Source: Escherichia phage mEp554
Length of the DNA: 53,846 nucleotides
Sequence record: PP180005
Reading direction: 5' to 3' (one strand)
Made by a program: the position numbers and the translations under genes. The notes beneath the pieces are model-generated. The model was not told the DNA's origin. It worked only from the letters and a program-made list of their open reading frames with translations, and did no database searches. How positions within the stretch are numbered: the stretch's first letter is position 1; each line of letters opens with the position of its first letter. This document shows positions 3,896 through 19,234 of this stretch, piece after piece.

Positions 3896-5311
3896 TTAAA
3901 AAGATGCGTTATTCTGATTGTTTCGTTGGTTAAAACGGCTTGTGCGATGATTCATTGACTGAATGCACGCTGCGGCTGCGCGCGCCTGGTCGCATGGCAA
4001 GATATTACCGTTGTCATCAAACCGCTGGTAAACAGTTCCAGACTTACCATGACGGTTTTTTGACACAATAATTTCCATATATTCGCGGGCAACAGACTGT
4101 TCATCGTAATATCCATCTCGGTAAACCATGATTATCCTGTCGGCATCTTGCTCAAGGTTGCCCGAATCACGAAGATCAGAATTGTTAGGTCGCTTGTTCG
4201 GTCGTTCCTCAACACGGCGGGACAATTGCGCCAGCGCCAACACTGGTACACGCAATTCTTTAGCCATCATCTTTAACGACCACGACAATTGCCCTACGGC
4301 GAGATCATGACGTTCGGCCTTAGCCAGCTTCATTAACCCGATATAGTCAATCATTACCATACCCAGGTTCGGGTGATCCTGCTTCATCCGTTCCGTTGTT
4401 GCGCGTATTTCCTCAACCGTTAACTGCGACGCGTCAACGATCCACACATCAAGATTAGCAAGTGCGCTCATACCCTGGCCGACATGCGCCCACCCCTCAT
4501 CATCAAGTTTTACAGGATTGCGCAGGCAGTCGGTTGATAAATTACCAGCGCCCGCGATAGCGCGCTCAGTCATCTGATCGAGTGACATTTCAAGCGTGAA
4601 GAACAAAACGCCAACCCGCTGATCCTTGCTGCCAGGGTAAGGTCGCTCAGCGGCAGCGCGGGCAATTGTCAGCGCCAACGCAGATTTACCAGACCCAGGG
4701 CGTCCGGCGAGAAGTACCAAATCAGTAGCGTTAATGCCGCCCAACATTTCGTCGAGTGGTTCTATACCTGTTTTGATGTTGTCAGAGTTGACACCGCATT
4801 CCATGCGCTTGCTTAAAACGTCAGTATATTCCTGTACCGCATCGCGCAACAGAACAGGAATGATCTTGTCTTTCGTTACCTTTAATTTTGAATACCGGGA
4901 ATCAAAATCTTTCATCGTCTCTTTGACGACCTCAAGCGTCCCAGTCTCCAGTTTGTAGCGCATATCGTCGATTAGTTCCAACATCTGCCGCCGCTGGTGC
5001 TCTTCACGTAGTAACTGTGCGTATCCCTTCAGGTTGGCAGCAGACGGGCACGAACGCGCCGTTTGCATTAGCGGTACGAAATTTTCATTACCAATCTCAT
5101 CACCGACCAGCAACGCATCTATGAGATTTCTGTTTCTGGCTTGTGCCCGGATAACTTCAAACGCACGTTTATAGAGCGGGATCGTGAACACTTCAGGATC
5201 AAGTGTGGCGAGAACATCTTGCGCGTTAGGAGTTAGGCCACCTAACAGCAGCCCGCCGATAACTGACGCCTCACGTTCCTGCCGTAGTGAGTTTATTTGC
5301 TCAGTTACCAT
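3896..5311 (-). CDS. dnaB: Replicative DNA helicase, DnaB family
   Basis: 471 aa. Walker A GRPGSGKSALAL, DnaB-type C-terminal motifs (MIDYIGLM, LAQLSR, RDSG..EQDAD) and an N-terminal DnaB-like domain. Confidence 0.9.
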   Translation of the reverse strand: MVTEQINSLRQEREASVIGGLLLGGLTPNAQDVLATLDPEVFTIPLYKRAFEVIRAQARNRNLIDALLVGDEIGNENFVPLMQTARSCPSAANLKGYAQLLREEHQRRQMLELIDDMRYKLETGTLEVVKETMKDFDSRYSKLKVTKDKIIPVLLRDAVQEYTDVLSKRMECGVNSDNIKTGIEPLDEMLGGINATDLVLLAGRPGSGKSALALTIARAAAERPYPGSKDQRVGVLFFTLEMSLDQMTERAIAGAGNLSTDCLRNPVKLDDEGWAHVGQGMSALANLDVWIVDASQLTVEEIRATTERMKQDHPNLGMVMIDYIGLMKLAKAERHDLAVGQLSWSLKMMAKELRVPVLALAQLSRRVEERPNKRPNNSDLRDSGNLEQDADRIIMVYRDGYYDEQSVAREYMEIIVSKNRHGKSGTVYQRFDDNGNILPCDQARAAAACIQSMNHRTSRFNQRNNQNNASF

Positions 5312-6481: not shown

Positions 6482-7225
6482 CTATTTGCACGCAAAAAGT
6501 TCAGACACCCAAAGTTGACCCTTAGCAGTAAATAGTGATTGTACATAACCAGCATCCGAACATTTTACCACTCCATAGCCTTTGTCTAAAAACCACTGTT
6601 TGAACATGCGCCCGCCGCGCCTAATTCGCGTATCGTACACGTCAACCTGTTCAAGTTTTTTGTTGAGTTGCGTAGCAGTCATACCCAAAGGCTTGGCAAC
6701 CTGTGTAGCGTTGCGATACTGTTTGTTTCTCACAATCGCATCACAGACAGCCGCTTTTGGCGCTAATTCCTTGTTTTCCAGCTCCAGCCGTTCAGCTTCT
6801 TTCTGTGCTAATAGTTTTTGTTCCACCTCATCAGCCCATGCGCGAGCCGCAGCAACCGGGTCAGTGAAATCCGGCAAAGCTGGTTTAAAACCGTAATGTC
6901 CATTTTCACGCAAAGCAGGGAGAACATCCTCGCACACCCAATCCTGGAAGCGCTCAGCCGATTCTATTTTTGATCGCATCACAAGGCGGTAAACATCTGA
7001 TTCATGGATTAGCGTTACGCCTTGCGGGATTGGAGCGAATCCCAAATGTTCCATTTCAGAACATTTTATTTTTATCAATGACTTACAGTGATCTTTGATA
7101 GCTTTTTGTGGCGTAGCGTAACCAAGCGCCCGCGCCACATCCATTGCAACAAAAGCAGGTTTACCATCATAAATTACAGCAGTGATTTTATTGTCATCAA
7201 AATTAAAGCACATCAACTCAGACAT
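6482..7225 (-). CDS. Antirepressor-like protein, Bro-N plus KilAC-type domains
   Basis: Start at ATG 7225 (SD GGAG). Bro-N signature (FVAMDVARALGY...HCKS...SDVYRLVMRSK...AERFQDWVCEDVLPALRENG). C-terminal half is KilAC-like. Confidence 0.75.
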   Translation of the reverse strand: MSELMCFNFDDNKITAVIYDGKPAFVAMDVARALGYATPQKAIKDHCKSLIKIKCSEMEHLGFAPIPQGVTLIHESDVYRLVMRSKIESAERFQDWVCEDVLPALRENGHYGFKPALPDFTDPVAAARAWADEVEQKLLAQKEAERLELENKELAPKAAVCDAIVRNKQYRNATQVAKPLGMTATQLNKKLEQVDVYDTRIRRGGRMFKQWFLDKGYGVVKCSDAGYVQSLFTAKGQLWVSELFACK

Positions 7226-7357
7226 TGTAATTTCTCCGTAAAACGCGCTACAACGCAAAAATCCCACCGCGTAACCCGATTGCACAGGTTGCAGTGTTTT
7301 ATTGCGTCAGAGGCGCTTTCAGATGGCTAATTTTTGATTTACAGACTGATATGAATG

Positions 7358-7459
7358 TTATGGATTGACTAGAAGGAACAAACCGCCGAACAAAGCGACG
7401 TTAACAGCGATTGCAGCAGCGATGGCAAAAGCCAGGGCGAAAACGTGTTTACCGTCCAT
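7358..7459 (-). CDS. 33-aa hydrophobic single-TM micro-ORF (MDGKHVFALAFAIAAAIAVNVALFGGLFLLVNP)
   Basis: Below the ORF-track cutoff. SD GAGAGGA 8 nt upstream. Same strand as flanking genes. Confidence 0.45.
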   Translation of the reverse strand: MDGKHVFALAFAIAAAIAVNVALFGGLFLLVNP

Positions 7460-7593
7460 TTTCAAAATCCTCTCTAAAACGCTCTATAACGAGCTAAATA
7501 GCTAAAGGTATGCAAGTGTAGCACCAAATGCTTTTTAGCTCGCTGGTGAGCTTGTTTGGTTGGTTATTTTTGATTTTTGCGGATCGTGGTTGG

Positions 7594-8595
7594 TCAAAGA
7601 GCGCCTGCGCGTGTATCACGTAGCGTTTTTGGTTTAAGCAGGAAATCAAGTGTCGCAGTGAAGCCATCGCCGAAGTAAAAATCTGAAGCATTGTTTTTGA
7701 ACGTTTCAAAGTAGGCGACAAAGCCGTTAATGCTTTTGTCTTTCAGGTAGTCAGTGAACGCGTAGATCTTGCGTTCAAGATCCCGATCCAGTTCGGCAGG
7801 TGGCAACAGGCCATCAAACGTGCTGTTAAATGCCTCCACTACGTCTGCAGCGTTTGCAGTGGCTGACAGGTTGCGCCATTTTTCAGCATCAGCCAGATAC
7901 CCATCAAATTTAGTTACCCGGCAAATGTTAATAGGCTTAGGTGTTCCGCCACGACTACGCCATTGCGTTAAAGCCCACTCAATCACTAATGTGATCTCAT
8001 CCTCTGTGTACGCTTTACGTGTTTTTGTTTCTGTCAGTAGTTCTATGAATGGCTTTGCATCACGACATTTGCATCCTGCCTTGTCGTTATAGAAGGCCAG
8101 GCAACGCAATGCCGCTTCGTTTACTCCATCCTGATTGACCTGTTTTTCTTCTGGGGGGATACAAGGGGGTATATCTTTAATGTTCTCTTTACTGGTTATA
8201 TATGACTGATTAGGGTGTCTCTCTGACACTACCCCCGGTGTCACTGTGACACTACCCCGGTGTCTCTCTGACACTACCCCCGGTGTCTCTCTGACACTAC
8301 CCAGCAATGATGGTAGGACTATCACATAGAAGTTACTCGTTTGCTCCTTTCCTCCGATTAAGTATCTTGGTTGTTTAATCAATAGACCTTTCTCACAAAG
8401 GGCGTCGACGGCCCTCATTGCCGTACTCTTACTGATCTCGCATTCCTTTGCTATGTGATGATAAGAAGGGTAACACTCGCCGTTATCATTAGCGTTATCA
8501 GCTAACTTCAACAGCACTAGTTTGTGCATTGGGTTGCCGACCTCAGTATGGAAGACTTCTACCATTAGCCGCATACTCATAAGCATTAACCTCAT
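7594..8595 (-). CDS. Replication initiator (N-terminal wHTH, internal iteron-encoded linker, conserved phage C-terminal domain)
   Basis: 333-aa ORF; exact start uncertain (several ATGs at 8565-8595). wHTH KLVLLKLADNANDNGECYPSYHHIAKECEISKSTAMRAVDALCEKGLL. Four iterons lie inside the gene, as in lambda O. Confidence 0.7.
   Translation of the reverse strand: MRLMLMSMRLMVEVFHTEVGNPMHKLVLLKLADNANDNGECYPSYHHIAKECEISKSTAMRAVDALCEKGLLIKQPRYLIGGKEQTSNFYVIVLPSLLGSVRETPGVVSERHRGSVTVTPGVVSERHPNQSYITSKENIKDIPPCIPPEEKQVNQDGVNEAALRCLAFYNDKAGCKCRDAKPFIELLTETKTRKAYTEDEITLVIEWALTQWRSRGGTPKPINICRVTKFDGYLADAEKWRNLSATANAADVVEAFNSTFDGLLPPAELDRDLERKIYAFTDYLKDKSINGFVAYFETFKNNASDFYFGDGFTATLDFLLKPKTLRDTRAGAL
8214..8302. 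repeat. Four contiguous 22-23-bp iterons (GGTGTCTCTCTGACACTACCCCC): candidate origin of replication
   Basis: Copies at 8214-8236, 8237-8258, 8259-8281 and 8282-8302. Each contains the dyad GTGTC-N5-GACAC. An AT-richer stretch lies adjacent (8174-8213). The repeat encodes the peptide TPGVVSERH. Confidence 0.7.
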
Positions 8596-8601
8596 GACGG
8601 A

Positions 8602-8847
8602 CTAAAACATTAACTGATAAACACAGAAGAAACCTGGCAGCTGGCTGATTAGGCCGCTTCTTTTCAGTTGATGCAGTGCAGAGATAGTATCGCGTAACGA
8701 AATTTCGCACATTTCCGCGATCTCTTCCGGCGTTACTTCGCTTTTGCCGTTGCATCCGGCCTTTGTTGCCAGTGCAATTAAGATGAGTTTTTGCACATGA
8801 TCATTGTTATTCAGGCGAATATCAAAAGCCTTGCGAACGTAATACAT
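8602..8847 (-). CDS. Small wHTH protein in the Cro position (81 aa)
   Basis: Start at ATG 8847 (SD GGAGA). First gene divergent from the CI-like repressor. Sequence parallels the N-terminus of the initiator (VQKLILIALATKAGCNGKSEVTPEEIAEMCEISLRDTISALHQLKRSGLI). Confidence 0.6.
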   Translation of the reverse strand: MYYVRKAFDIRLNNNDHVQKLILIALATKAGCNGKSEVTPEEIAEMCEISLRDTISALHQLKRSGLISQLPGFFCVYQLMF

Positions 8848-8955
8848 GTTTCTTTCTCCTATGGTTAGAGTGAACGCGCTGGCGGGTATCAAATTAGCAT
8901 TAGATAGCAGTGACTGACCGCTGAACAGATCCCGCCGTTGCGTGATATTTGTTTT

Positions 8956-8988
8956 TCGCTTCGCAGCGACACCGGATTTTTAAAGAGC
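8956..8988 (-). promoter_or_regulatory. nut-like site in the leftward leader (boxA-like plus hairpin)
   Basis: Minus-strand GCTCTTTAAAAATCCGGT (8971-8988) matches 16/18 of the rightward nut site. It is followed by hairpin TCGCT-GCGA-AGCGA (8956-8969). Confidence 0.45.
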
Positions 8989-9029
8989 TTTTAAGGTATG
9001 TGCCTTTTGTGCTTTCCCTTATCTTTTTC

Positions 9030-9045
9030 CTTGCATCATTGCAAG
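9030..9045. promoter_or_regulatory. Perfect inverted repeat CTTGCA-TCAT-TGCAAG (candidate operator)
   Basis: Lies in the CI/Cro intergenic region. The half-site CTTGCATCA recurs at 9119-9127. Confidence 0.4.
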
Positions 9046-9061
9046 TTCGGCTTTACCTTGT

Positions 9062-9094
9062 CTGTAAGTTTACAGAATGGCGTTAACAGATCAA
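9062..9094 (-). promoter_or_regulatory. Candidate leftward early promoter (-35 TTGATC 9089-9094, 16-nt spacer, -10 TAAACT 9067-9072) overlapped by palindrome CTGTAAGTTTACAG (9062-9075)
   Basis: Hexamers read directly on the minus strand. The 14-bp perfect palindrome covers the -10, as expected for an operator. Confidence 0.45.
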
Positions 9095-9153
9095 GGATTG
9101 AAAATTACATTTTGTGACTTGCATCAAATTTTTTTAGGTTATAGGGTAGCGAC

Positions 9154-9801
9154 ATGAAAACAAAATGGTATGACTTAGCAAAACAACTCATGCGGGCGCA
9201 GGGTATGAGTCAGGATTCATTGGCAGATCTCATGGGGATCACAAAAGGCGGCTTGTCACACTGGCTTAACGGTCGCCGCGAGCCAAATCTTGAAGACATT
9301 GCGCGGATCATGCGGGCGCTTGGGCGTCGGCAGTTCACTGTCACACATGATGGAATGGTCATTGATGATTCTGTTTCTAACACGTTGCCGGGAGCGCCTC
9401 CTCGTGATTTAGGCAGTTACCCGGTTGTTGACTGGAAGGATGTAGCAAACAATATGGAAGACATAAGCAGATCAACATTGCCACACGTTACGACTAGCGT
9501 TATTTGTTCAGATGATAGTTACTGGCTGGTTGCTAAAGGCGAATCAATGAACGCGCCGCAAGGATTGAGTATACCAGCGGGGACGATGATACTTGTCGAT
9601 CCGCACGCGCCAGCTATTGACGGAAAACTGGTTATAGCCCAACTGGAGGAGGGGCAGATACCGACGTTTAAACAGTTGATTATTGATGGAGGCAGAAAAC
9701 TTTTGCGTTCACTGAATCCGTTGTATCCGCCGATCCCTATGAATCCAGAATCTAAAATCATAGGCGTGGTAGTGGATGCGAAGATCGTAAACCTGCCATA
9801 A
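9154..9801 (+). CDS. cI: CI-like repressor, XRE HTH plus S24 (LexA-like) autopeptidase domain
   Basis: 215 aa. HTH MSQDSLADLMGITKGGLSHWLNGRREP. C-terminal S24 signature (VAKGESM...FKQL). Confidence 0.9.
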   Translation: MKTKWYDLAKQLMRAQGMSQDSLADLMGITKGGLSHWLNGRREPNLEDIARIMRALGRRQFTVTHDGMVIDDSVSNTLPGAPPRDLGSYPVVDWKDVANNMEDISRSTLPHVTTSVICSDDSYWLVAKGESMNAPQGLSIPAGTMILVDPHAPAIDGKLVIAQLEEGQIPTFKQLIIDGGRKLLRSLNPLYPPIPMNPESKIIGVVVDAKIVNLP

Positions 9802-9807
9802 AACATT

Positions 9808-9832
9808 AGCCGCCTGGTGGCGGCTTTTCTTT
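9808..9832 (+). terminator. Rho-independent terminator after the repressor gene
   Basis: AGCCGCC-TGGT-GGCGGCT followed by TTTTCTTT. Confidence 0.8.
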
Positions 9833-9912
9833 GCCATAAAAACACCAAAACGTAAACAGAAAACGTTATTTATTATTTAAATATCAATGACATATAAAAT
9901 ATTTTAAAAAAG

Positions 9913-9954
9913 TATACAAAATGGATTGACTAGGTGTTTTACGGGGCGTATATT
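9913..9954 (+). promoter_or_regulatory. Rightward early promoter (-35 TTGACT 9926-9931, 17 nt, -10 TATATT 9949-9954) abutted by the 12-mer TATACAAAATGG (9913-9924)
   Basis: Near-consensus sigma70 hexamers. AT-rich UP-like region upstream. Confidence 0.7.
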
Positions 9955-9995
9955 GCGAGTCAAAGGAGGAAGCAAGGCAGGGAAAGAAGGTTACT

Positions 9996-10033
9996 TGCTC
10001 TTTAACAATCTGGTCAGCCGCTGGAAGTGCGGC
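9996..10033 (+). promoter_or_regulatory. nut site: boxA TGCTCTTTAACAA (9996-10008) plus boxB-like hairpin GCCGC-TGGAAGT-GCGGC (10017-10033)
   Basis: boxA is identical to the E. coli rrn boxA consensus as I recall it. It lies in the leader between the promoter and the N-like gene. Confidence 0.7.
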
Positions 10034-10088
10034 AATTAACGAAGATGATTTTTATTAAGTATCATCAAGGATATAAGGAGATCAGATC

Positions 10089-10379
10089 ATGACAGTTACA
10101 ATCATGTATGGCAAATGTGATAGCAAAATAAACGCCAGGGAACGCAGAAGAATAAAAAGAGAAAACGAAAGAAAATCATCACCTGCAATTAATAAAACGG
10201 ACAATGTGGATAAAGCCATTCGCTTTGCAAACGATGAAAGATGCAAACCCAATGGCATTAAAGAACGTCGCAAAGGAGCAGTAAAATGGTATACGGAAAA
10301 TGAAAGCGGCAACTACTACCACGCAACGCAACCACGCCAACTAGGGGAGAAACCACTGGATAAAGTCCGTTACCATTAA
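10089..10379 (+). CDS. N-like antitermination protein candidate (arginine-rich motif)
   Basis: 96 aa. SD AAGGAG. Residues 14-29 (INARERRRIKRENERK) resemble lambdoid N ARMs. First gene after the nut site. Confidence 0.55.
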   Translation: MTVTIMYGKCDSKINARERRRIKRENERKSSPAINKTDNVDKAIRFANDERCKPNGIKERRKGAVKWYTENESGNYYHATQPRQLGEKPLDKVRYH

Positions 10380-10409
10380 TACATATCGTAAACAATCGGA
10401 GGTGACGTT

Positions 10410-10532
10410 ATGGTTATTAAGGCGCTTCAATTCAAACTTGCGGTAGCGGAAATGCTTCACGATGCCGAAATGTGGAGCGCCGCAAATAAAGCCTTGTACA
10501 TAGTGTTAACAGCTAAGGAGATCAAAGAGTGA
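10410..10532 (+). CDS. 40-aa micro-ORF (MVIKALQFKLAVAEMLHDAEMWSAANKALYIVLTAKEIKE)
   Basis: SD GGAGGTG. Its stop overlaps the GTG start of erf (GTGA). Confidence 0.5.
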   Translation: MVIKALQFKLAVAEMLHDAEMWSAANKALYIVLTAKEIKE

Positions 10533-11170
10533 AAACAGAATTACACAAAAAGCTGTGGACGATTCAACAAACGCTGAACGCACCGAAAAATCAGCGCAAT
10601 AATTTCGGTGGGTACAATTACAGGTCGGCGGAGGATATTTTGGAGGCGGTTAAGCCACTTCTTCAAAATATAACGCTGACTGTTAGCGATGAAATCGTCC
10701 TGATCGGCAATCGCTATTATGTGAAAGCCACTGCAACACTAAGCGACGGAGAAGATGAAATTGCGGTAACTGCTTACGCCAGGGAAGAAGAAAGCAAGAA
10801 GGGAATGGACGCAAGCCAGTTAACTGGCGCGACATCAAGTTATGCGCGTAAATACGCGTTGAACGGCTTGTTCTGCATTGATGACGCAAAAGATCCTGAT
10901 ACTGATGCTTACGCGAAACAGACAAATCAACAGCCGCGACAGCAGAAAAACACGCCGAAACAACAACCACAGCAGCAGAAAGCGCCGCCAAATCCTGATG
11001 AAGTATTAGCACGTTTCTGTGATGCGGCAGCGAAAGCGCCGGACGCTAACAAGTTGCGCGAGATATTCGGGAAGTGCTGGAAGATACTTCCTAAAGATTC
11101 AGAGCAGCAACAGAAAGCTAAAGACGTTTATGATATTCGCTTAAAAGAGCTTAACGGGGAGATCGGTTAA
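10529..11170 (+). CDS. erf: ERF-family single-strand annealing protein
   Basis: 213 aa, GTG start. ERF signature (FGGYNYRSAEDILEAVKPLL...GATSSYARKYALNGLF). Confidence 0.85.
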   Translation: MKTELHKKLWTIQQTLNAPKNQRNNFGGYNYRSAEDILEAVKPLLQNITLTVSDEIVLIGNRYYVKATATLSDGEDEIAVTAYAREEESKKGMDASQLTGATSSYARKYALNGLFCIDDAKDPDTDAYAKQTNQQPRQQKNTPKQQPQQQKAPPNPDEVLARFCDAAAKAPDANKLREIFGKCWKILPKDSEQQQKAKDVYDIRLKELNGEIG

Positions 11171-11637
11171 TGAGCTTAAATTCAATCACGCTGGGCGGTA
11201 ATATCGGAAATGATATGGAAGTTCGCTACACGCAAAACGGTAAAGCTATTGGTAGCTTTCCGTTAGCTGTAACGAATGGCTACGGTGATAATAAGCGGAC
11301 AATGTGGATCACTTGCCTGGTATTTGGCGAGCGTGCGGAAAAATTAGCTCCACATATTCGTAAGGGTGGAAAAATAGTGGTAAGCGGTCGCCTGGATGTT
11401 CGGCAATATGACCGGAACGACGGCACGAAGGGGACGGCGGTAGAAGTGGCGGTCAATGAATTTGAGTTCATGGCTGTTAACCAGCAAGGCCAACAGCAAG
11501 GCCAGCAGCAGGGCCAGCGCCAGCCGCCGCAACAGAATCAAGGCGGCGGCAATCAACCTCCGATGGATTTTGACGATGATATCCCATTTAGTTGCGTGGG
11601 GTTACAATATGGAAAACATAGAATCTACGCGTTGTAA
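11170..11637 (+). CDS. ssb: Single-stranded DNA-binding protein with a 15-aa extension beyond the canonical DDDIPF tip
   Basis: OB-fold N-terminus, Gln/Gly-rich linker, PPMDFDDDIPF, then SCVGLQYGKHRIYAL before the stop. Confidence 0.85.
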   Translation: MSLNSITLGGNIGNDMEVRYTQNGKAIGSFPLAVTNGYGDNKRTMWITCLVFGERAEKLAPHIRKGGKIVVSGRLDVRQYDRNDGTKGTAVEVAVNEFEFMAVNQQGQQQGQQQGQRQPPQQNQGGGNQPPMDFDDDIPFSCVGLQYGKHRIYAL

Positions 11638-12139
11638 ACGGTGTATAAAATGTGGGGCGTTATTGCCCCTTTCTTCTTTCTATAAACATAAATTAATGGC
11701 TGACGGTCACTCAAATAAATGTAAGGAGTGTACGAAGCAAGATGTAAAAGATAATCGCAAGAAAAATATAGAACGCTACAGGGAATACGACAGAGAGCGC
11801 AACCAATCAGGGGATAGGAAAGCGTTAAGACGTCGTTATCGTCAAAGCGATGAAGGTAAGGAGGCGCATAAAAGGGCTTGCGACAAGTGGGTTAAAAATA
11901 ACGAGAAGAAGCGCCACGCCGAAATAATGGTAGGTAACGCTATCCGCGATGGCAAATTAATTAAACAACCTTGCGAAGTATGCGGCAGAGAGGACCGCGT
12001 ACACGCGCACCATTGCGATTATGATAAGCCGCTCGATGTTATGTGGCTTTGCCCGATATGCCATCGAGCGTGGCACAACGAACACGGTGAAGGAGCTAAT
12101 GCACACGACGAGGTATTAAATGGTGAGCGAATATCTTAA
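11609..12139 (+). CDS. HNH endonuclease-like zinc-finger protein
   Basis: Start at ATG 11609. CxxC pairs and the HNH core (VHAHHCDYDKPLDVMWLCPICHRAWH). Confidence 0.75.
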   Translation: MENIESTRCKRCIKCGALLPLSSFYKHKLMADGHSNKCKECTKQDVKDNRKKNIERYREYDRERNQSGDRKALRRRYRQSDEGKEAHKRACDKWVKNNEKKRHAEIMVGNAIRDGKLIKQPCEVCGREDRVHAHHCDYDKPLDVMWLCPICHRAWHNEHGEGANAHDEVLNGERIS

Positions 12140-12401
12140 AGCACCGCCACCGCCGCGAACAAAAGAGCAAGTTCTAAAAGAAGCCCGTGATCAAATCGAT
12201 CGCGGGCTTTTTTTATGCGGCACGGCGGCGGATCGAATGGCGAAAAGATTTAGTGACCTGTACGCAAAACAAATATGGTTCGACAACTGGCAGGCAAGTT
12301 TTTACCCACTGCAAAGAAAACCGGATATGCATTGGCCTGAATATGTCGATCCACGTATGCGCAAATATCGCGGGCGTATGGGCCAGGTTATTAACGATTA
12401 A
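12120..12401 (+). CDS. Hypothetical protein (93 aa)
   Basis: ORF track. Packed on the same strand. Confidence 0.55.
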   Translation: MVSEYLKAPPPPRTKEQVLKEARDQIDRGLFLCGTAADRMAKRFSDLYAKQIWFDNWQASFYPLQRKPDMHWPEYVDPRMRKYRGRMGQVIND

Positions 12402-12415
12402 TGAGGTATTAAATC

Positions 12416-12640
12416 ATGATCGAAGAAAAAGAAATTGATAAAGAAACGCCTGATGGTCGTGATGAGCTTATTTATTTTGATGGCGGCATGTATGAGATCG
12501 ATACGTCGGCTGGCTGGCATGATAAATGGCCTCTGCCTACTCGCAAGGAATTGAGCGATCGTAAATCATTCGGCGAAGATGCAGAACGCCTTGCTAATAA
12601 CAAGTGGCTTAACAAGTTTATTGCGGAGGGCGACAAATGA
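12416..12640 (+). CDS. Hypothetical protein (74 aa)
   Basis: SD GAGGT upstream. Confidence 0.6.
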   Translation: MIEEKEIDKETPDGRDELIYFDGGMYEIDTSAGWHDKWPLPTRKELSDRKSFGEDAERLANNKWLNKFIAEGDK

Positions 12641-12750
12641 ATTTTGCAAAAATTGCCGCACTGATTGCGGCCCTGTCTATCGCCGTGGTGTATCTGAGCG
12701 TATCTCTTTGTATCACGGTAGCGATCATTAAACTTATTACTAACATGTGA
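12637..12750 (+). CDS. 37-aa single-TM micro-ORF (MNFAKIAALIAALSIAVVYLSVSLCITVAIIKLITNM)
   Basis: ATGA overlap with the upstream stop. Hydrophobic core. Confidence 0.5.
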   Translation: MNFAKIAALIAALSIAVVYLSVSLCITVAIIKLITNM

Positions 12751-12758
12751 GGCCAATC

Positions 12759-12878
12759 ATGAAAGTCGGTAAGGATATTGTGACAGTCGCGTTTTGCATT
12801 ATTTGTTTCCTGTTTGTGGTTGTGTTTTGTGGCGCATTTGCCGCGCTGGTTAGCCTTATTTTCAGGGGATTGTTGTGA
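12759..12878 (+). CDS. 39-aa single-TM micro-ORF (MKVGKDIVTVAFCIICFLFVVVFCGAFAALVSLIFRGLL)
   Basis: Stop overlaps the next start (TGATG). Hydrophobic core. Confidence 0.45.
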   Translation: MKVGKDIVTVAFCIICFLFVVVFCGAFAALVSLIFRGLL

Positions 12879-13150
12879 TGAAAACATGGGATGCAAAGGC
12901 TGGTGATCTTGTCGTATTGCCTGAATATCGTGATGACCCTGGCCTGGTTGTACTGAATAAGATGTGTAACGATCTCGAACGTCCATTACTGGTTAAATAC
13001 CTGGACGGAACAATCATAGAGCCGCGTTTCTTTGATGATATTGAACTGAAGGCCCGCAATGTTCGCGTTAAGCCGTTCCGGGCTTATGTTGAAGACCACT
13101 GGCGGAAATTGTTCGCCGGACTGAATGGGATGTACGGCGTATGGCTATAA
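12878..13150 (+). CDS. Hypothetical protein (90 aa)
   Basis: ORF track (GTG 12875 / ATG 12878). Confidence 0.55.
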   Translation: MKTWDAKAGDLVVLPEYRDDPGLVVLNKMCNDLERPLLVKYLDGTIIEPRFFDDIELKARNVRVKPFRAYVEDHWRKLFAGLNGMYGVWL

Positions 13151-13332
13151 AGGAAGTAAAGGTCAAAGACCTGAAAGGCGGTGAGCGATTAAAGGCGTGG
13201 TGGGGTCGTGAGTTTACAGCCGCTGCCTTCATGATCATGCATGGCGGGGAAGTCGTTATATACGATGAAGACCTGAAGGAAGTAGGCAGATGGCATCTTG
13301 AGCAATATATCGAGGTGTTAGATGAAAATTAA
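13141..13332 (+). CDS. Hypothetical protein (63 aa)
   Basis: ORF track. Overlaps its neighbours by a few codons. Confidence 0.5.
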   Translation: MAIKEVKVKDLKGGERLKAWWGREFTAAAFMIMHGGEVVIYDEDLKEVGRWHLEQYIEVLDEN

Positions 13333-13654
13333 ATTCCATAAAGGTTATGATTCGGTCACTAACAAGTTATCGCTATTTATTGAGTTCGAGCGCCGGATCG
13401 TGGTTGTTCCTTATGCGCGTCGCTTTAATGATGCGGCAGGGCGGCGGCAATTCGCATTAGATATGATGTTGCGTGGCTGCGGCCTTATGCGCCCGCTATC
13501 TGATTTAAACCGGATGATGCCTGGATCGTTCGGTCAGATTGATGAAATTGAAATAAGCCAGGACGAGCTAAAACGGGCGCGTGATTTGTTCCTTTCAAGT
13601 GAAGGGAACCCGTTTAATCCAGAGACTGAAATGAAATGGCATCATCCACTATAA
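13322..13654 (+). CDS. Hypothetical protein (110 aa)
   Basis: SD GAGGTG upstream. Confidence 0.6.
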   Translation: MKIKFHKGYDSVTNKLSLFIEFERRIVVVPYARRFNDAAGRRQFALDMMLRGCGLMRPLSDLNRMMPGSFGQIDEIEISQDELKRARDLFLSSEGNPFNPETEMKWHHPL

Positions 13655-13667
13655 AAGGATAAATATC

Positions 13668-14288
13668 ATGAAAGACATCAAAACGGCTTATTCACTAGGC
13701 AGCGATGGCATGTTAATCACTCGCTACACTGAAGATGCAAGTTTTCATGAAGTGGAAACGAAGGACTATCACGAAGTGCTAAAGGATATGGAAGCTGGAG
13801 CGTATGACGCAGATTTGAACCTGGCGTTACAGGTTGCTGATATTGTGATGGAAGCGTCGATGCGCGACTATGTGTCTTTGGATAATGAAGAAAAAACGGC
13901 TGTAGCTCGTTATGTCTTCTGCCTCACTTTTGTGAAACGCATGGAAGAAGAATATGGTCGCGTGCCAGTGCCGGAAGAGCTTGATCCGCTGGCGTTCGGC
14001 AGTGCTGTTATCTTCCCGTTAGACGAAAACCATATGGGTAGCGCTGCACTGTATTCTGTGCGCGGCGTAATGAAGAAAATATTTGAGGCCAAAGCGCTAC
14101 ATAAGTGCATTGATGAAGGGCACAACGAAGAAGACGTAAGAGCGATCATGCCGCTGTTTTATGGCGAAATGGTTGGTATTAACATGCGTGCAAATGATTT
14201 AGGCGTGCAGGCGGCTATATCTATGCTTAATGAAGCACGAAAAATGTCACAGCCAATGCCTGAACCTGAAAAGCGCGTACTTCATTAA
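13668..14288 (+). CDS. Hypothetical protein (206 aa)
   Basis: SD AAGGA upstream. No family recognised. Confidence 0.6.
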   Translation: MKDIKTAYSLGSDGMLITRYTEDASFHEVETKDYHEVLKDMEAGAYDADLNLALQVADIVMEASMRDYVSLDNEEKTAVARYVFCLTFVKRMEEEYGRVPVPEELDPLAFGSAVIFPLDENHMGSAALYSVRGVMKKIFEAKALHKCIDEGHNEEDVRAIMPLFYGEMVGINMRANDLGVQAAISMLNEARKMSQPMPEPEKRVLH

Positions 14289-14291
14289 TAT

Positions 14292-14352
14292 TGTGATTGC
14301 GATCACATAGCTATACATTTTGTACTGTGATCGCGAATCCGTTTTGTAAACT
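14292..14352 (+). promoter_or_regulatory. Composite regulatory region: CRP-type palindrome TGTGATTGCGATCACA (14292-14307), 12-mer variants (14315-14326, 14339-14350), -10 TAAACT (14347-14352)
   Basis: All 10 core positions of TGTGA-N6-TCACA are present. The palindrome centre lies about 60 bp upstream of the predicted start. Confidence 0.55.
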
Positions 14353-14387
14353 GAAAGCAAAAGGTTTACGGTACGGAGGGAAATAAG

Positions 14388-14606
14388 ATGGCCCGCGAAT
14401 TAATGCTTTATTGTGTTGAGGGTGGAGTAGGTCACGATGCCTACGTCGCTGGGAAAGGCTATCCAGCCGATGAAGTGCTTTCTAATATGCACTTCCGGGA
14501 AAATGAAAGCCGGGTGTCTGTGTGGAAACGGTGCGTTGATGGTATTGAGGTTGTAAGCATCGAACGGTATTTAGGCACGTTTGATTACGGTGTTATTGAG
14601 GCTTAA
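14388..14606 (+). CDS. Hypothetical protein (72 aa)
   Basis: SD GGAGGG upstream. Confidence 0.6.
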   Translation: MARELMLYCVEGGVGHDAYVAGKGYPADEVLSNMHFRENESRVSVWKRCVDGIEVVSIERYLGTFDYGVIEA

Positions 14607-14608
14607 TT

Positions 14609-14701
14609 ATGGACGACACATTGTTTTATATGTGCTGTTGCTGGGGTTTTATTGCCTTATGCCTGTTTATCAGGTGGTTTATTGAATACCATATGAGGTG
14701 A
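14609..14701 (+). CDS. 30-aa Cys-rich hydrophobic micro-ORF (MDDTLFYMCCCWGFIALCLFIRWFIEYHMR)
   Basis: Fills the gap between two ORFs on the same strand. No strong SD. Confidence 0.35.
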   Translation: MDDTLFYMCCCWGFIALCLFIRWFIEYHMR

Positions 14702-14704
14702 TAT

Positions 14705-14899
14705 ATGAAAAAGGTTGGCGGTTATACGTTGCCTGATAACGCTAAATTGGCGGGAATTGGTTTTAGCGGCTGTTATTACTACAACAATGTAGGCGATATT
14801 TATTGCGTGCGTTTTGTCGATGGTGTACAGCATTTTCGCAGACTACCAGACATTGAATTGAGTAAACTTATCCGTGAGGTGTCATTACATGCGGTTTAA
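14705..14899 (+). CDS. Hypothetical protein (64 aa), paralogue-like with the next gene
   Basis: SD GAGGTG. Shares the G.FSG.Y.Y motif with the ORF at 14889-15092. Confidence 0.55.
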   Translation: MKKVGGYTLPDNAKLAGIGFSGCYYYNNVGDIYCVRFVDGVQHFRRLPDIELSKLIREVSLHAV

Positions 14900-15092
14900 A
14901 CATTACAGAGAATGGAAGATTCCAGAATCAGCAACAAAGGCAGCGCCCGGAATATTTTCGGGCGTTTATTTTTATATGGAAGGTAAATGGTATTTCGGCA
15001 GCAGGCCGGATCACTATTATCAAGAAGTATGCAAATCTCACACATGGGACATTAAGGAGCGCGTGCAAGGCGGTGTAATAGACGAGGTTTAA
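14889..15092 (+). CDS. Hypothetical protein (67 aa)
   Basis: ATG 14889 with SD GAGGTG. Confidence 0.55.
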   Translation: MRFKHYREWKIPESATKAAPGIFSGVYFYMEGKWYFGSRPDHYYQEVCKSHTWDIKERVQGGVIDEV

Positions 15093-15093
15093 A

Positions 15094-15330
15094 ATGATTA
15101 ATGGTTTTTTAAGCTGGTTAAGAGTGTGGTTTTTTGCCACGCTTTTCGTTTTTTTGGCGTTCAGCGGTGTCATTGTCATATTTACGCTGGCGATGATGTT
15201 CATTACATGGTCAGTACCTGAATTTAACGACTTTGGAGCTATTATTGCCATCGCCCGCGCTTTATTGGCTGGTAGCGCATTTATTGGTTTTTGCTGGACT
15301 GTAGCGCCTGATTGGGGTGATGAATGGTGA
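15094..15330 (+). CDS. Membrane protein, 2-3 predicted TM segments (78 aa)
   Basis: SD GAGGT. Strongly hydrophobic sequence. Confidence 0.6.
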   Translation: MINGFLSWLRVWFFATLFVFLAFSGVIVIFTLAMMFITWSVPEFNDFGAIIAIARALLAGSAFIGFCWTVAPDWGDEW

Positions 15331-15334
15331 TCCT

Positions 15335-15568
15335 ATGGCTTTGTTCAATATGTCAGAACTGCAATTTAATGCCGTAAAAGCTGCCGCCCGCGCAGCGCTT
15401 TCTGCTTGCAAAGCTGAGGTAGAGAAAAACGGCTACAGCGATAAAGCCACGCGGCTGATATTAGATAAGCATTATCGCAAGGTCGCCCCGCTGATCAGCA
15501 TTGAGCGCTTTGTGTGGTTGGTGGGGTATTTAAACAACCGTTGGGGAACGGAACAGGATTATTTCTAA
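15335..15568 (+). CDS. Hypothetical protein (77 aa; ORF open from 15317)
   Basis: ATG 15335 preceded by GGTGA. Confidence 0.5.
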   Translation: MALFNMSELQFNAVKAAARAALSACKAEVEKNGYSDKATRLILDKHYRKVAPLISIERFVWLVGYLNNRWGTEQDYF

Positions 15569-15581
15569 GGGGGGGGGCGTA

Positions 15582-16121
15582 ATGAAAAATGATTACGGCG
15601 GCAGCCATACGCCGAAAGAAATAAAAGACCTATGGCAAACGCCAAAACCAGTTTTTAGAGGAATGGATCGAGAATTCGAATTCGTCGCTGATGTGGCGGC
15701 AAACAAGGCAAACGCGCTAGTTCCGCGATATATAACCGAAGAAATGGACACGTTGCATTATCCGTGGGGAGCGGTGGCAATGCCTGGTGAATATGTCTGG
15801 ATGAATCCGCCATACTCAAACCCTGGTCCATTCGTTGATAAAGCGGCGCTCGAACATCAACTGAATCACATTGGTTGCGTAATGCTGTTGCCCGCTGACA
15901 TTTCTGTTAGCTGGTTCATGAACGGCGCGGAGACGGCAAACGAATGCAGATTAATAACGCGCGGGCGGCTGGCGTTTATCAATGCTGCGACTGGTAAGCC
16001 AGTGAGCGGAAACAATAAAGGGAGCTTGTTTTTGATCTGGCATCCACGATGCAGACATGAATGTATTTTTACACACATAACACGTAAAGAGCTATACGCA
16101 AGAGGTGCAGATAATGACTAG
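15582..16121 (+). CDS. dam: Phage N6-adenine DNA methyltransferase (Dam-like)
   Basis: 179 aa. WQTP...D.AA...N and catalytic NPPY (WMNPPYSNP). Poly-G SD. Confidence 0.85.
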   Translation: MKNDYGGSHTPKEIKDLWQTPKPVFRGMDREFEFVADVAANKANALVPRYITEEMDTLHYPWGAVAMPGEYVWMNPPYSNPGPFVDKAALEHQLNHIGCVMLLPADISVSWFMNGAETANECRLITRGRLAFINAATGKPVSGNNKGSLFLIWHPRCRHECIFTHITRKELYARGADND

Positions 16122-16611
16122 TGCGGCAGATTTACTACGAATCGCAGCGGAAACAATTGAGCAAAGAGGTAAACAAAACGGATACGACAGAAAAGAGGAA
16201 AAATCGGCGCCAAAAATAGCCACTATATATAACGCTAAGAAGGGCGCAAATTTAACCCCGCTTGATGTATGGGATCTGTTGATTTGTCTCAAGGAGGCGC
16301 GTTTAGAGGCCATTTTGGCTAATGGTAGCGATCCTGCTGACACTTTGGTTGACCTAATCAGCTACAACGCACTAAAAGCTGAGCAAATATTGAATGATCG
16401 GGATGAAGAGTTAAAGAAAAATCAGTTCACTGCCGCCAATATTAGCGATGGAATAATAAAAGATGCAGCAATAACAAGCTGTAAGGGCTTACCCCCTTCA
16501 ATGCTTAATCCTCAATGCGGTTGCATTTCAACTCGGCTTGATTTGAGTTTTGACAGATCTGAAGCTATTCGCGATAAGAGGTATGACCCAAATGAAAAAG
16601 GTGACAATTGA
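16114..16611 (+). CDS. Hypothetical protein; N-terminal region resembles the phage DUF6378-type helical domain
   Basis: Start at ATG 16114 (SD GAGGTG). The pattern IEQRGKQNGYD...IATIYNAKKG.NLTPLDVWDLLICLKEAR is recalled, not searched. Confidence 0.45.
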   Translation: MTSAADLLRIAAETIEQRGKQNGYDRKEEKSAPKIATIYNAKKGANLTPLDVWDLLICLKEARLEAILANGSDPADTLVDLISYNALKAEQILNDRDEELKKNQFTAANISDGIIKDAAITSCKGLPPSMLNPQCGCISTRLDLSFDRSEAIRDKRYDPNEKGDN

Positions 16612-17095
16612 CAGGTTATTGGCCTGCGTTTATGTCGCCGTTTTCGTGATCATCAACCTTATTGTTAACCATTGCGGCCCGTGGGTAATTCCGATCACTA
16701 CGGTAGCCGCTGTGTGTGTCAATATGATGATCCGTGACTTCCTGTTATATGACGGCGGCTTGAAATGGTCGGCTACAACATGCGCCGCCGCTGGCGCAAT
16801 CACGGTGCTAATAAATTACGATGCAGGAATGGTAGCAATAGCGTCATTCGTCGCGGTTGTTTCCGGTGCGCTTATATCTGGCGGTGTTTACCGGGTTTTG
16901 CCTGGTGATTTCGATTCGAAACGCTGGCCTGCAAATATAGCTTCAGCCATCGGGGATGCGTTAATTTTCCCGACGCTATCGTTTATGGCGTTTATGCCGG
17001 AAATATCAGCGATGCAATTCATCTCAAAAATGGCAGCGGTGACGGTGATCACTATCATCATGCGCCGCTATTTCACGTTTGAGGGCAAAAAATGA
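16592..17095 (+). CDS. Polytopic membrane protein, possibly VUT/YhhQ (queuosine-precursor transporter) family
   Basis: 167 aa, 4-5 hydrophobic segments. GDALIFP and the overall pattern are reminiscent of DUF165/YhhQ. Assignment is tentative. Confidence 0.4.
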   Translation: MKKVTIDRLLACVYVAVFVIINLIVNHCGPWVIPITTVAAVCVNMMIRDFLLYDGGLKWSATTCAAAGAITVLINYDAGMVAIASFVAVVSGALISGGVYRVLPGDFDSKRWPANIASAIGDALIFPTLSFMAFMPEISAMQFISKMAAVTVITIIMRRYFTFEGKK

Positions 17096-17874
17096 GCAAG
17101 GCTAAACACTGGTTATATAATTGGCTAAGAAACTGGGTTGTGTGGTCGCTGTACGACGGCAGCGGGTACGCCGTTAAAGACTGGGCGGAAGCGGGATATA
17201 AGTGCTATTGCTTCAACTATGACGGCGCAAATCACGGCGATTATGAAGGCGTTAAAATCATTCATCCGAATATTGAATACGTTAACGTATGGATTGACAG
17301 TCACTTCCTGGTGATGTTCTCGCCTGACTTGTCAGTTTACCCAGAGCCTGACATTATCCTGGGCTTCCCGCCGTGCGACGATCTCGCCGTGTCTGGCGCT
17401 CGCTGGTTCGCTGACAAACGAAAAAAAGATCCTGACTTCCAGGTGAAGGCGGCGAATAGCGCAAAACTGGTAGAAAAACTGGCGGATATGCACAACGTGC
17501 CGTGGATGGTGGAAAATCCGGTGGGGGCACTGTCAACGCTATGGCGTAAACCGGATTTTATCTTCAATCCTTGCGCTTACGGTGGCTACCTGCCGGAAGA
17601 TGACAAACATCCTGCTTTCCCGGATGTTTACCCGGCGCGCGACGCGTATACAAAGAAAACTTGTATTTGGTGCGGTAACGGATTTAAGCAGCCGCTTTTC
17701 AGACCTGTAGATCTTAACTCTGGTGATAACCCGGGGTGGGCGAAAACAGGAGGCAGGACGAAACGAACAAAGATGATCCGCTCACTAACGCCGCGCGGCT
17801 TTGCCCGTGCTGTATTCCTGGCTAACGACCGGGCCATCAATCGTACTACGCTTAACCGTGTTTTGCCGGACTGA
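17092..17874 (+). CDS. Minimal C5-cytosine-methyltransferase-like protein
   Basis: 260 aa. Motif I-like SLYDGSGYA, motif IV-like GFPPCDDLAVSG (PC dipeptide), motif VI-like VENPVG, C-terminal TPRGFARAV. ATGA-coupled to the upstream membrane gene. Confidence 0.55.
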   Translation: MSKAKHWLYNWLRNWVVWSLYDGSGYAVKDWAEAGYKCYCFNYDGANHGDYEGVKIIHPNIEYVNVWIDSHFLVMFSPDLSVYPEPDIILGFPPCDDLAVSGARWFADKRKKDPDFQVKAANSAKLVEKLADMHNVPWMVENPVGALSTLWRKPDFIFNPCAYGGYLPEDDKHPAFPDVYPARDAYTKKTCIWCGNGFKQPLFRPVDLNSGDNPGWAKTGGRTKRTKMIRSLTPRGFARAVFLANDRAINRTTLNRVLPD

Positions 17875-17876
17875 AA

Positions 17877-17957
17877 TTTACAAAATGGCGTCATTGCGTG
17901 ATGCGGATCACATAATGGCGCTTTTTGTCTTGTTTGCATGTATCCATTTTGTATACT
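17877..17957 (+). promoter_or_regulatory. Composite regulatory region: TTTACAAAATGG (17877-17888), CRP-type palindrome CGTGATGCGGATCACA (17897-17912), promoter -35 TTGTTT (17930-17935), 16 nt, -10 TATACT (17952-17957) inside CCATTTTGTATA (17944-17955)
   Basis: Read directly from sequence. The palindrome centre lies about 60 bp upstream of the predicted start. Flanking 8-bp inverted repeat TTGTTTGC / GCAAACAA. Confidence 0.55.
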
Positions 17958-18033
17958 TCAAGCAAACAAAATGCTCTTTAAAAATCCGGCAGCGCTGAAA
18001 TGCGTAGAAATCACCTGAAAAGGAGAGAGCATT

Positions 18034-18210
18034 ATGCCTTTTGATAATTACCAATGGCATGACGACTATGAACGAGAGAGCGTTATGCGTGCAATGTGCA
18101 ATGTATGCAGCACGAAGAGAGGAGGCTGTAACGAGTGCAACGAATGCTTAGAACATTGGCTAAGGGCCGGACACGCCGAAAGGCTGAACGAAACAGAGAA
18201 TCAAAAATAA
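18034..18210 (+). CDS. 58-aa Cys-rich micro-ORF (MPFDNYQWHDDYERESVMRAMCNVCSTKRGGCNECNECLEHWLRAGHAERLNETENQK)
   Basis: Strong SD AAGGAGAG. CxxC-N6-CxxCxxC pattern. Below the ORF-track cutoff. Confidence 0.6.
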   Translation: MPFDNYQWHDDYERESVMRAMCNVCSTKRGGCNECNECLEHWLRAGHAERLNETENQK

Positions 18211-18224
18211 TCGGGGTGGTTTTT

Positions 18225-18830
18225 ATGCAAAACCCTAAAAAACCCATAAGACGCCGTTGCAAATGCTGCGGCGTTTTTTTTGAGCCTAAATACCATAATC
18301 AAACGTGGTGCAGTGATGAGTGTCTGGAAGAGCTGAAATTTGATCAGCTATGCCGCGACCGTGAGAAGGCTATGAAGGCTATGGAGCGGAAGAAACGCCG
18401 TGATAGCCAGCGTGAAGAACGCAACCGGAAGCGTAAACAGTTAAATCCGCGTAGTTATTGGATCAAACAAGTTCAAAATGTATTTAACGCCTATATTCGA
18501 GAACGTGACGCGCGCTTGCCGTGTATATCTTGCGGGACTTACTACGGTGAGCAATGCGGGTGGGATGCAGGCCATTACAGGACGGTAGCCGCCGCCGGAC
18601 ACCTTCGCTTCAACGAGGATAATTGCCATAAGCAATGTAGGCACTGCAACCAGACACTAGACGGCAACATCGGAGGGTATCGCCCGGCACTGATTCGAAA
18701 AATTGGCCTCGCCAGGGTGGTAGCTCTGGAGAACAACAACGAAACTCACAAATGGACGATTGCAGAATGTAAGGAGCTAATAAACATCTATCAGGCTAAA
18801 TTGGACGCCTTAAGGAGAAAGGCAGCATGA
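18225..18830 (+). CDS. ninG: NinG/Rap-family recombination endonuclease
   Basis: Start at ATG 18225. NinG pattern (C.CCG..F.P......WCS..C...; FNAYIRERD...CISCG...AGHYR...RFNE.N.HKQC..CN). Confidence 0.85.
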   Translation: MQNPKKPIRRRCKCCGVFFEPKYHNQTWCSDECLEELKFDQLCRDREKAMKAMERKKRRDSQREERNRKRKQLNPRSYWIKQVQNVFNAYIRERDARLPCISCGTYYGEQCGWDAGHYRTVAAAGHLRFNEDNCHKQCRHCNQTLDGNIGGYRPALIRKIGLARVVALENNNETHKWTIAECKELINIYQAKLDALRRKAA

Positions 18831-19234
18831 ACGAATATACATTTAGCCTACCTTACCCGCCATCGAATAATCGCTATTACCGACATTCGCGCGGTTTTCA
18901 CTATATCAGCAAAGTGGGGAAGGAATACAGGGAACAAGTAAGAGACATCATTGAGCTATTAAATTTAAATATTAACCTGCCTTGCCGACTGGCAATTGCA
19001 ATTTACGCCGCGCCGCCGGATAACCGGATCAGAGATCTGGATAATATCCCTAAATGCCTTTTTGATAGCCTTACTTATGCCGGATTCTGGATGGATGACG
19101 GGCAAATTGACTCAATAAAAATTGTCCGCTGCCGGAAGATAAAAGGCGGACGCTTGTTTATTAAGATCCGCGAACGCGGCGACCTACTACCGGATATTGA
19201 CGAATACGCGACTAATATGTGGGGTGAGCAATGA
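18827..19234 (+). CDS. rusA: RusA-family Holliday junction resolvase
   Basis: 135 aa. LPYPPSNNRYY...RDLDN..K...D.L....W.DD.QI signature. Confidence 0.85.
   Translation: MNEYTFSLPYPPSNNRYYRHSRGFHYISKVGKEYREQVRDIIELLNLNINLPCRLAIAIYAAPPDNRIRDLDNIPKCLFDSLTYAGFWMDDGQIDSIKIVRCRKIKGGRLFIKIRERGDLLPDIDEYATNMWGEQ

Follow-up and report, generated by a model that had tools for sequence, protein, structure and literature searches.

Escherichia phage mEp554 (sequence record PP180005) carries what is very probably the early N-type processive antitermination module of a temperate coliphage of the mEpimmI (mEp021-like) group; we put the probability of this reading at about 0.93. We analyzed the whole stretch of 53,846 nucleotides (nt), hereafter the window, in which an initial annotation had noticed a boxA and a hairpin in each of two divergent leaders and an arginine-rich, N-like protein encoded directly after the rightward site. 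The module comprises a leftward nut site (nutL), two rightward ones (nutR1 and nutR2) and a protein of 96 amino acids (aa) homologous to Gp17 of phage mEp021. Reading positions 8000-11000 directly, we located all of the flagged strings and coordinates. The observation is confirmed, and its interpretation is supported: nut sites combined with an N-like protein match Gp17 with nutR1, nutR2 and nutL as PMC11893012 describes them. The flagged sequences belong to an already published N-like antitermination system, known from a phage to which they are 94-98% identical.

By sequence, the window is assigned to a coliphage of the mEp021 (mEpimmI) group. Its first 25 kb are ~91% identical to mEp044, mEp515 and mEp021 across 81-87% of the length, and identity in the region 8500-10600 rises to 93-96% with Escherichia phages mEp013, mEp021, mEp044 and mEp010. 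The gene order likewise matches mEp021-type phages, and the plus strand of the window has the orientation of the mEp021 record. Because the genome is only ~91% identical overall, we regard the phage as a different species-level member of the group. The same region is present as a prophage in 35 of 5,426 complete E. coli genomes.

PMC11893012 (Front Microbiol 2025) terms the mEpimmI phages "Nus-dependent non-lambdoid" and describes phages of the group as dependent on Nus factors. Citing Valencia-Toxqui et al. (2023), it presents Gp17 as the experimentally shown lambda-N-like early antiterminator of mEp021, which targets three sites: nutR1 ahead of gp17, nutR2 after the gene for the cytosine methyltransferase, and nutL adjacent to that for the repressor. 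It also gives Gp17 residues R17, R19, R20 and R24 as fully conserved and terminators t1, t2 and t5 as demonstrated by experiment. Antitermination by Gp17 at three nut sites and the Nus dependence of the group are taken here from that account. With experiments on mEp021 in 2023 and a survey of 48 genomes in 2025, the system has a literature of its own, to which the window adds a further member.

All three sites lie at the published positions. In the rightward leader, nutR1 (9996-10033, plus strand) consists of the boxA-spacer TGCTCTTTAACAAT (9996-10009), the 7 nt CTGGTCA and a boxB hairpin, GCCGC-UGGAAGU-GCGGC (10017-10033). The initial annotation had given this boxA as identical to that of the E. 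coli rrn operons; against the published rrnG oligonucleotide CACugcucuuuaacaauuua (PMC2724277, Table 1), 14 of 14 bases agree, so that the site has the consensus boxA UGCUCUUUA followed by the spacer ACAAU. The nutL site (8989-8956, minus strand) belongs to the leftward (replication) operon, where it lies in the leader 5' of the first gene, and is composed of the boxA AGCTCTTTAAAAA (8989-8977), the spacer TCCGGTG and the boxB UCGCU-GCGA-AGCGA (8969-8956). As proposed, its string GCTCTTTAAAAATCCGGT (8988-8971, minus strand) equals the rightward one at 16 of 18 bases, and the hairpin TCGCT-GCGA-AGCGA follows. Its position agrees with that of the published nutL beside the repressor gene (PMC11893012).

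The third site, nutR2 (17972-18005, plus strand), was absent from the initial list. It reads TGCTCTTTAAAAATCCGG-CA-GCGC-UGAAAU-GCGU, with the boxA TGCTCTTTAAAAA at 17972-17984, the spacer TCCGGCA and the boxB GCGC-UGAAAU-GCGU at 17992-18005. The homologue of the cytosine methyltransferase gene (17092-17874) ends ~100 nt before it, so that it has the location published for nutR2 (PMC11893012), and it precedes ninF, ninG, rusA and Q. Base for base, nutL, nutR2 and the boxB of nutR1 are the same in the window and in mEp021; the nutR1 boxA of mEp021 is CGCTCATTAACAAT where the window has TGCTCTTTAACAAT.

Three copies of the 9-mer GCTCTTTAA occur in the window against 0.44 expected, a number reached in 2 of 100 shuffles. 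The third copy (17973-17981, plus strand) lay outside the initial finding. In each case the strand is the one transcribed in an early operon, and a short hairpin follows 11-12 nt further on. The window holds exactly three boxA-plus-hairpin composites in 53.8 kb, all in transcription sense, and both early operons have the nut arrangement of a boxA CGCTCTT(T)A, a short spacer and a boxB hairpin.

To follow these sites among relatives, we scanned IMG/VR with the 96-aa protein and obtained 43 loci with flanks of 10 kb. Four extra contigs in a protein collection supplied homologues at a greater distance (67-71% identity), and another, at 70%, came from the IMG/VR scan. The boxA core is conserved at every one of the three sites, as is the spacer AAUC(C/U)GG, and the boxB hairpins share a plan of a 4-5-bp stem, a U, a GNRA tetraloop and a U or A. 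Across 45 related loci nutL is near-invariant, on the plan UCGC-U-GCGA-A-GCGA; its loop variants GUGA and GCAA remain GNRA, the GCAA variant being closed by U.U. The plan at nutR2 is (G/A/C)CGC-U-GAAA-U-GCG(U/U/G), in which the outer stem pair covaries as G.U, A-U and C-G. At nutR1, divergent relatives have UGCAC-U-GAAA-U-GUGCA, GCAC-U-GAAA-A-GUGC, UCGC-U-GAAA-U-GCGA or GCUAC-U-GAAA-U-GUAGC. The boxB loops among relatives are therefore GAAA, GCGA, GUGA or GCAA, all within GNRA, with the nutR1 of the window as the exception: it has a pentaloop, GGAAG, between two U residues, and this form is near-invariant among close relatives. The initial annotation held that both of its loops contain GAAG. 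That is true of the rightward loop; the leftward loop is GCGA, and GAAG arises there only across the boundary of loop and stem. The shared feature of the loops is U-GNRA-U/A instead.

The stems vary in a manner that preserves pairing. Among 12 distinct tetraloop-type boxB variants (50 loci), all 48 cells form standard pairs, and three of the four stem pairs show changes on both sides. None of 500 shuffles reached the observed percentage paired, the count of double-change cells or the covariation score; 26 of 500 did reach the number of doubly changed pairs. Sliding the register lowers pairing to 10-52%. These counts cover tetraloop-type sites, because the joint MAFFT alignment shifted the 3' arm of nutR1, which has an extra loop base. 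Since the stem covaries and the loops stay GNRA, the boxB hairpin is under selection. Loss of the hairpins in related phages had been named as grounds for abandoning the proposal; they are kept in ~50 loci, with compensatory stem changes. A scan of 8800-10200 against Rfam, with E values up to 10, gave chance-level matches only and no nut or antiterminator family.

The first gene past the rightward site (10089-10379, plus strand) was described as encoding a 96-aa arginine-rich, N-like protein. Its product, which begins MTVTIMYGKCDSKINARERRRIKRENERK and contains KINARERRRIKRENERK, is 97.9% identical to mEp021 Gp17 (the product of mEp021_17). An arginine-rich motif (ARM) spans residues 15-29 with R17, R19, R20, R21 and R24, and so includes the four arginines that PMC11893012 gives as conserved. 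As is usual for N, a small basic ARM protein is here the first gene of an early operon beside the immunity region, after a candidate promoter (9926-9954) and nutR1. The predicted antiterminator matches PHROG 271 ("anti-termination protein N-like") over its full length with an E value of 7e-11, the values for P22 gp24 and lambda N being 7e-40 and 9e-24. In a single BLASTP comparison with P22 gp24, the N-termini align as MTV-I-YGK...NA..RR (15/36, E 0.009). A profile comparison with N families had been suggested as a check; hhalign, run with 11 Gp17-family sequences against 15 P22-type N proteins, gave 84% probability and an E value of 7e-6 for the P22 gp24 family, confined to residues 2-56. The link that this comparison makes to P22 N covers only the N-terminal half of Gp17. 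The Pfam model PF11438 (N36) did not match the protein.

The C-terminal half of Gp17 has no relatives among known N proteins. Residues 67-96 (10286-10379) form a block, WYxENESGNYxHATQPRQLGExPLDKVRYH, that is near-invariant down to 61% overall identity, and no counterpart of it was detected in P22 or lambda N. In 50,697 phage records, a tblastn search with Gp17 found mEpimmI phages only, and a HMMER profile scan of representative proteins returned five matches, two of them from the Gp17 family, one a distant relative of 115 aa (P0049) and two proteins of great length (1,084 and 3,778 aa). The block is still recognizable in the distant relative and is a candidate for the region that contacts RNA polymerase. 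We conclude that Gp17 works like N, with an RNA-binding half remotely related to the P22 type and an effector half of its own.

Several results weigh against the antitermination reading. The functional evidence on Gp17 is second-hand, through a later account by the same group of the 2023 work (PMC11893012). The protein scores 16.5 bits on Pfam PF25694 (N_peptide, P22-type), under the gathering cut-off of 27.9; lambda N itself reaches only 14.9 bits on this model. BLASTP of Gp17 against lambda N found nothing, nor did a search of PDB chains with the Gp17 family profile at E values up to 10, and the full HMMER scan, over 1.8 billion representative proteins, recovered no recognizable classical N. 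With the hhalign match ending at residue 56, the C-terminal 40 residues have no P22 N counterpart, and regions homologous to the NusA- and RNA-polymerase-binding parts of lambda or P22 N were not found. At nutR1 of the window, the loop UGGAAGU departs from the U-GNRA-U/A plan that the other sites follow. On the leftward side, the scan found no sigma-70 match of at least 9/12; the best candidate by eye, TTGATC-16-TAAACT (9094-9067, minus strand), scores 8/12, under the scan threshold. Finally, the nut hairpins are the minimum-energy structures in single-sequence folding, with z-scores of only -0.5 to -2.0, and boxB-like hairpins alone are no more frequent than chance predicts (12 found against 9.4 expected). 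Because hairpin counts and fold energies are unexceptional, the signal lies in the composite of boxA and hairpin and in its conservation.

The nutR1 leader differs among relatives in a way that bears on how this site may work. In 34 of 45 loci, those of the mEp021 type, a hairpin-rich insert of ~215 nt (annotated gp16, 37 aa) separates the early promoter from nutR1; comparing window positions 9955-9995 with 4456-4710 of an insert-carrying locus (L001), we found that the window lacks it. The insert junction falls where boxA starts, at its first bases, and which boxA variant a locus has depends on the state of the insert. All 11 loci without it have TGCTCTTTAA[C/T]AAT, and the exact rrn 14-mer occurs at nutR1 in nine of the 45 loci, solely among these. 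Among the 34 loci with the insert, 31 have CGCTCATTAA[C/A]AAT, two have CATTCTTTAACAAT and one has CGCTCTTTAACAAT. Insert-carrying relatives also have a degenerate boxA-like string, GGCACTTTAAAAA(A)TCAGG, between the early promoter and the insert (L049 9715-9735; L001 4498-4518), which may be a remnant or an additional boxA.

Two refinements for nutR1 are suggested by its sequence, and we consider it rather unlikely that either holds. In the sub-lineage without the insert, the rrn-identical boxA-spacer may allow a Nus complex to assemble at nutR1 partly without Gp17; if so, there would be a basal, rrn-like read-through of Rho-dependent terminators there. Alternatively, the 7-nt loop UGGAAGU, compared with U-GNRA-U/A at nutR2 and nutL, may be bound by Gp17 in another mode or with another affinity, and this difference could then serve to autoregulate gp17, whose start codon is 55 nt downstream.

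A stronger form of the rrn argument, that boxA recruits NusB/NusE and host factors in an antitermination independent of any phage protein, leaving the hairpins and the 96-aa protein irrelevant, is very improbable. The identity of the nutR1 boxA-spacer with rrn (UGCUCUUUAACAAU, 14 nt) speaks for it, as does the consensus CUUUA at all three sites. However, most relatives, mEp021 included, combine a non-consensus nutR1 boxA (CGCTCATTAACAAT) with the same boxB, and the covarying stems and the loops that stay GNRA show the hairpin to be under selection. The CAC upstream of the rrn boxA is also absent, the window having ACT at this position, and the literature credits antitermination to Gp17 (PMC11893012). 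In E. coli rrn, moreover, boxB lies upstream of boxA and is reported dispensable for antitermination, and no phage protein takes part, whereas the window has a covarying hairpin 3' of boxA and a dedicated ARM protein encoded adjacent to it.

The Nun protein of phage HK022 occupies the position of N and binds boxB through an ARM. By analogy, the 96-aa protein could be a Nun-like exclusion or termination factor, or else an RNA-binding regulator of translation, an idea that we rate lower still. In its favor, no relation exists between the Gp17 C-terminal block and the C-terminus of P22 N, and with nutR1 only 55 nt upstream of the start codon, translational autoregulation of gp17 is conceivable. 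Against a Nun-like role, gp17 follows both the terminator of the repressor gene and an early promoter of its own, and is therefore not obviously expressed from the prophage. The nut sites also stand in the phage's own three early leaders, and antitermination is what the literature reports (PMC11893012). We set aside, too, the idea of HK022-type put RNAs: each site is one short hairpin preceded by boxA. That the boxA-like strings and hairpins are functionless chance resemblances is the least credible explanation of all, for although short GC hairpins with GNRA-like loops are no commoner than expected and their fold z-scores are unremarkable, the three composites are correctly oriented in early leaders, exceed the 0.44 boxA cores expected, match published functional sites (PMC11893012) and are conserved in ~50 loci with compensatory stem changes, and this conservation and covariation exclude chance.

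For early N-type antitermination, we infer the pairing of proteins with RNA elements, the exact promoters and the set of terminators that are overridden, and picture events as follows. When the CI-like repressor is absent, transcription would start from the rightward promoter (~9926-9954) and from a leftward promoter in 9040-9100, and the nascent RNAs would soon bear a nut site, nutR1 or nutL respectively. Gp17 would be made from the first rightward gene and would bind the boxB hairpin through its N-terminal ARM. Host NusB/NusE would assemble on boxA, with NusA and NusG joining the complex, which would then ride with RNA polymerase through terminators, reaching the recombination and nin/Q genes in the rightward direction and the replication genes in the leftward one. 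Candidate terminators for rightward read-through are at 11654-11669, 14942-14966, 15120-15146 and 17886-17926. Just beyond the last of these, a strong one, nutR2 would load or re-load the complex before ninF, ninG, rusA and the Q-type gene.

The surroundings of nutR2 are consistent with such a role. The hairpin at 17886-17926 (plus strand), followed by U5, has a fold energy of -24 kcal/mol (z -5.4) and lies between the cytosine methyltransferase gene and nutR2, 46 nt 5' of the boxA of the latter. In mEp021 the corresponding hairpin is annotated TERM_4 and lacks the U-run. Between the hairpin of the window and nutR2 there is a weak promoter-like sequence, TTGTTT-16-TATACT (17930-17957). Further on, a terminator-like hairpin with U8 (18248-18281, plus strand) is embedded in the NinG reading frame (...RRCKCCGVFF...), and it may be one terminator that polymerase modified at nutR2 has to pass. 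Because nutR2 stands just past the stable hairpin and ahead of the one in ninG, it probably re-loads the complex before Q, or else serves transcripts from the weak local promoter.

Among known systems, the Gp17 system of mEp021 and the other mEpimmI phages is the closest, as the identity of its protein and sites indicates. The order of elements is also the same, running from the replication genes through the helix-turn-helix (HTH) gene, nutL, cI, a terminator, the promoter, nutR1, gp17, a kil-like open reading frame (ORF), erf and ssb, and further rightward through the cytosine methyltransferase gene, a terminator, nutR2, ninF, ninG, rusA and Q. The differences are the missing gp16 insert and the nutR1 boxA.

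P22 offers a second comparison. Its N protein, gp24 (PF25694), shares the N-terminus MTV-I-YGK...NA..RR.ERR, and its gene is likewise the first after the early promoter beside the immunity region. The P22 sites, with nutR as CGCTCTTTACCAATCTGAA-CCGCCGACAACGCGG and the nutL boxB as GCGCUGACAAAGCGC, are similar to those of the window: they have the consensus boxA CGCTCTTTA, the nutR spacer CAATCTG that also occurs in nutR1 of the window, and boxB hairpins with a 5-bp GC stem and a purine-rich loop, with a non-Watson-Crick closing pair at nutR. In contrast, the P22 pentaloop is GACAA, where nutR2 and nutL of the window place a GNRA tetraloop between U and U/A; the two proteins are unrelated in their C-terminal halves, and the window protein stays under the Pfam cut-off. 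P22 also has two nut sites, with nutR after cro, and the window has three, none of them after a cro-like gene.

Lambda N offers a third comparison. It shares PHROG family 271, the logic of an ARM with boxA and boxB, a Q-type late antiterminator downstream and, on the evidence of PMC11893012 for the window's group, Nus dependence. The lambda nutL boxA-spacer cgcucuuaaaaauuaa resembles GCUCUUUAAAAAUCCGG of nutL and nutR2. Pairwise similarity of lambda N to Gp17 is undetectable by BLASTP, however, and lambda differs further in a boxA without the extra U, in the pentaloops GAAAA and GAAGA closed by U-A, and in having two nut sites.

Such comparisons also dispose of three points that had been listed as unusual. 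That the leftward nut lies upstream of the gene in the Cro position is equally so in mEp021, where nutL precedes the first leftward gene. Differing boxB stems are not unusual, because those of P22 differ too. The presence of a Q-like factor is standard; the gene (19413-20135, plus strand) encodes a Q-type late antiterminator (Pfam PF03589 Antiterm, E 8.5e-31) and is a likely downstream target of N-mode read-through.

The remaining elements of the region fit this layout. A CI-like repressor gene (9154-9801, plus strand), with HTH_3 and Peptidase_S24 domains in Pfam and annotated as cI repressor in mEp013 and mEp021, sits between the two divergent early control regions. It is followed by an intrinsic terminator (9808-9825, plus strand), AGCCGCC-UGGU-GGCGGCU then UUUUCUUU, with a fold energy of -14.4 kcal/mol (z -2.7), annotated likewise in mEp021 and mEp013. 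The candidate rightward early promoter, TTGACT-17-TATATT (9926-9954, plus strand), lies ~40 nt upstream of the nutR1 boxA. Judged on consensus match alone, it is the best sigma-70 match (10/12) in 7000-20000, and it is conserved in relatives. We found no convincing operator repeats shared between the two early control regions.

The rightward operon continues from gp17 through a Kil-like ORF, Erf, SSB, several terminator-like hairpins and nutR2 to NinG, RusA and the Q-type antiterminator. The Kil-like ORF (40 aa, 10410-10532, plus strand) directly follows gp17 and resembles lambda Kil (PF06301, 21.4 bits against a cut-off of 27.6; PHROG 2055, E 0.001). The leftward operon encodes an HTH protein of 81 aa, an O-like initiator with iterons of 23 nt, and DnaB. 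Its first gene (8602-8847, minus strand), for the 81-aa protein, is an HTH_36/O-like N-terminal-domain paralogue with no recognizable Cro character, and no Cro-like ORF of at least 20 aa was found between the divergent promoters and nutL. Some relatives (L049, L050) are without this small HTH gene. Within the O-like replication gene (7594-8595, minus strand), the 23-nt unit GGTGTCTCTCTGACACTACCCCC is repeated in 3.9 tandem copies at 8214-8302; these repeats are probably origin iterons, as in lambda O.

As a discovery, the value of this finding is small; the check itself retains a practical use. The published function of Gp17 has yet to reach public annotations: in GenBank/RefSeq its homologues are labeled "hypothetical protein" in five of six matching phage records, MagusPhagus alone having an N-like label, and the E. 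coli prophage matches listed are "hypothetical protein" as well. The comparison also yields a concise formula for the boxB of Gp17 (stem, U, GNRA, U/A) that is backed by covariation, and a natural boxA polymorphism, rrn consensus versus CGCTCATT, that is coupled to a leader insertion. If either of the readings of nutR1, partly Gp17-independent assembly or a different mode of loop binding, were true, these phages would offer a natural series of boxA and boxB variants with which to dissect the relation of N-type to rrn-type antitermination.

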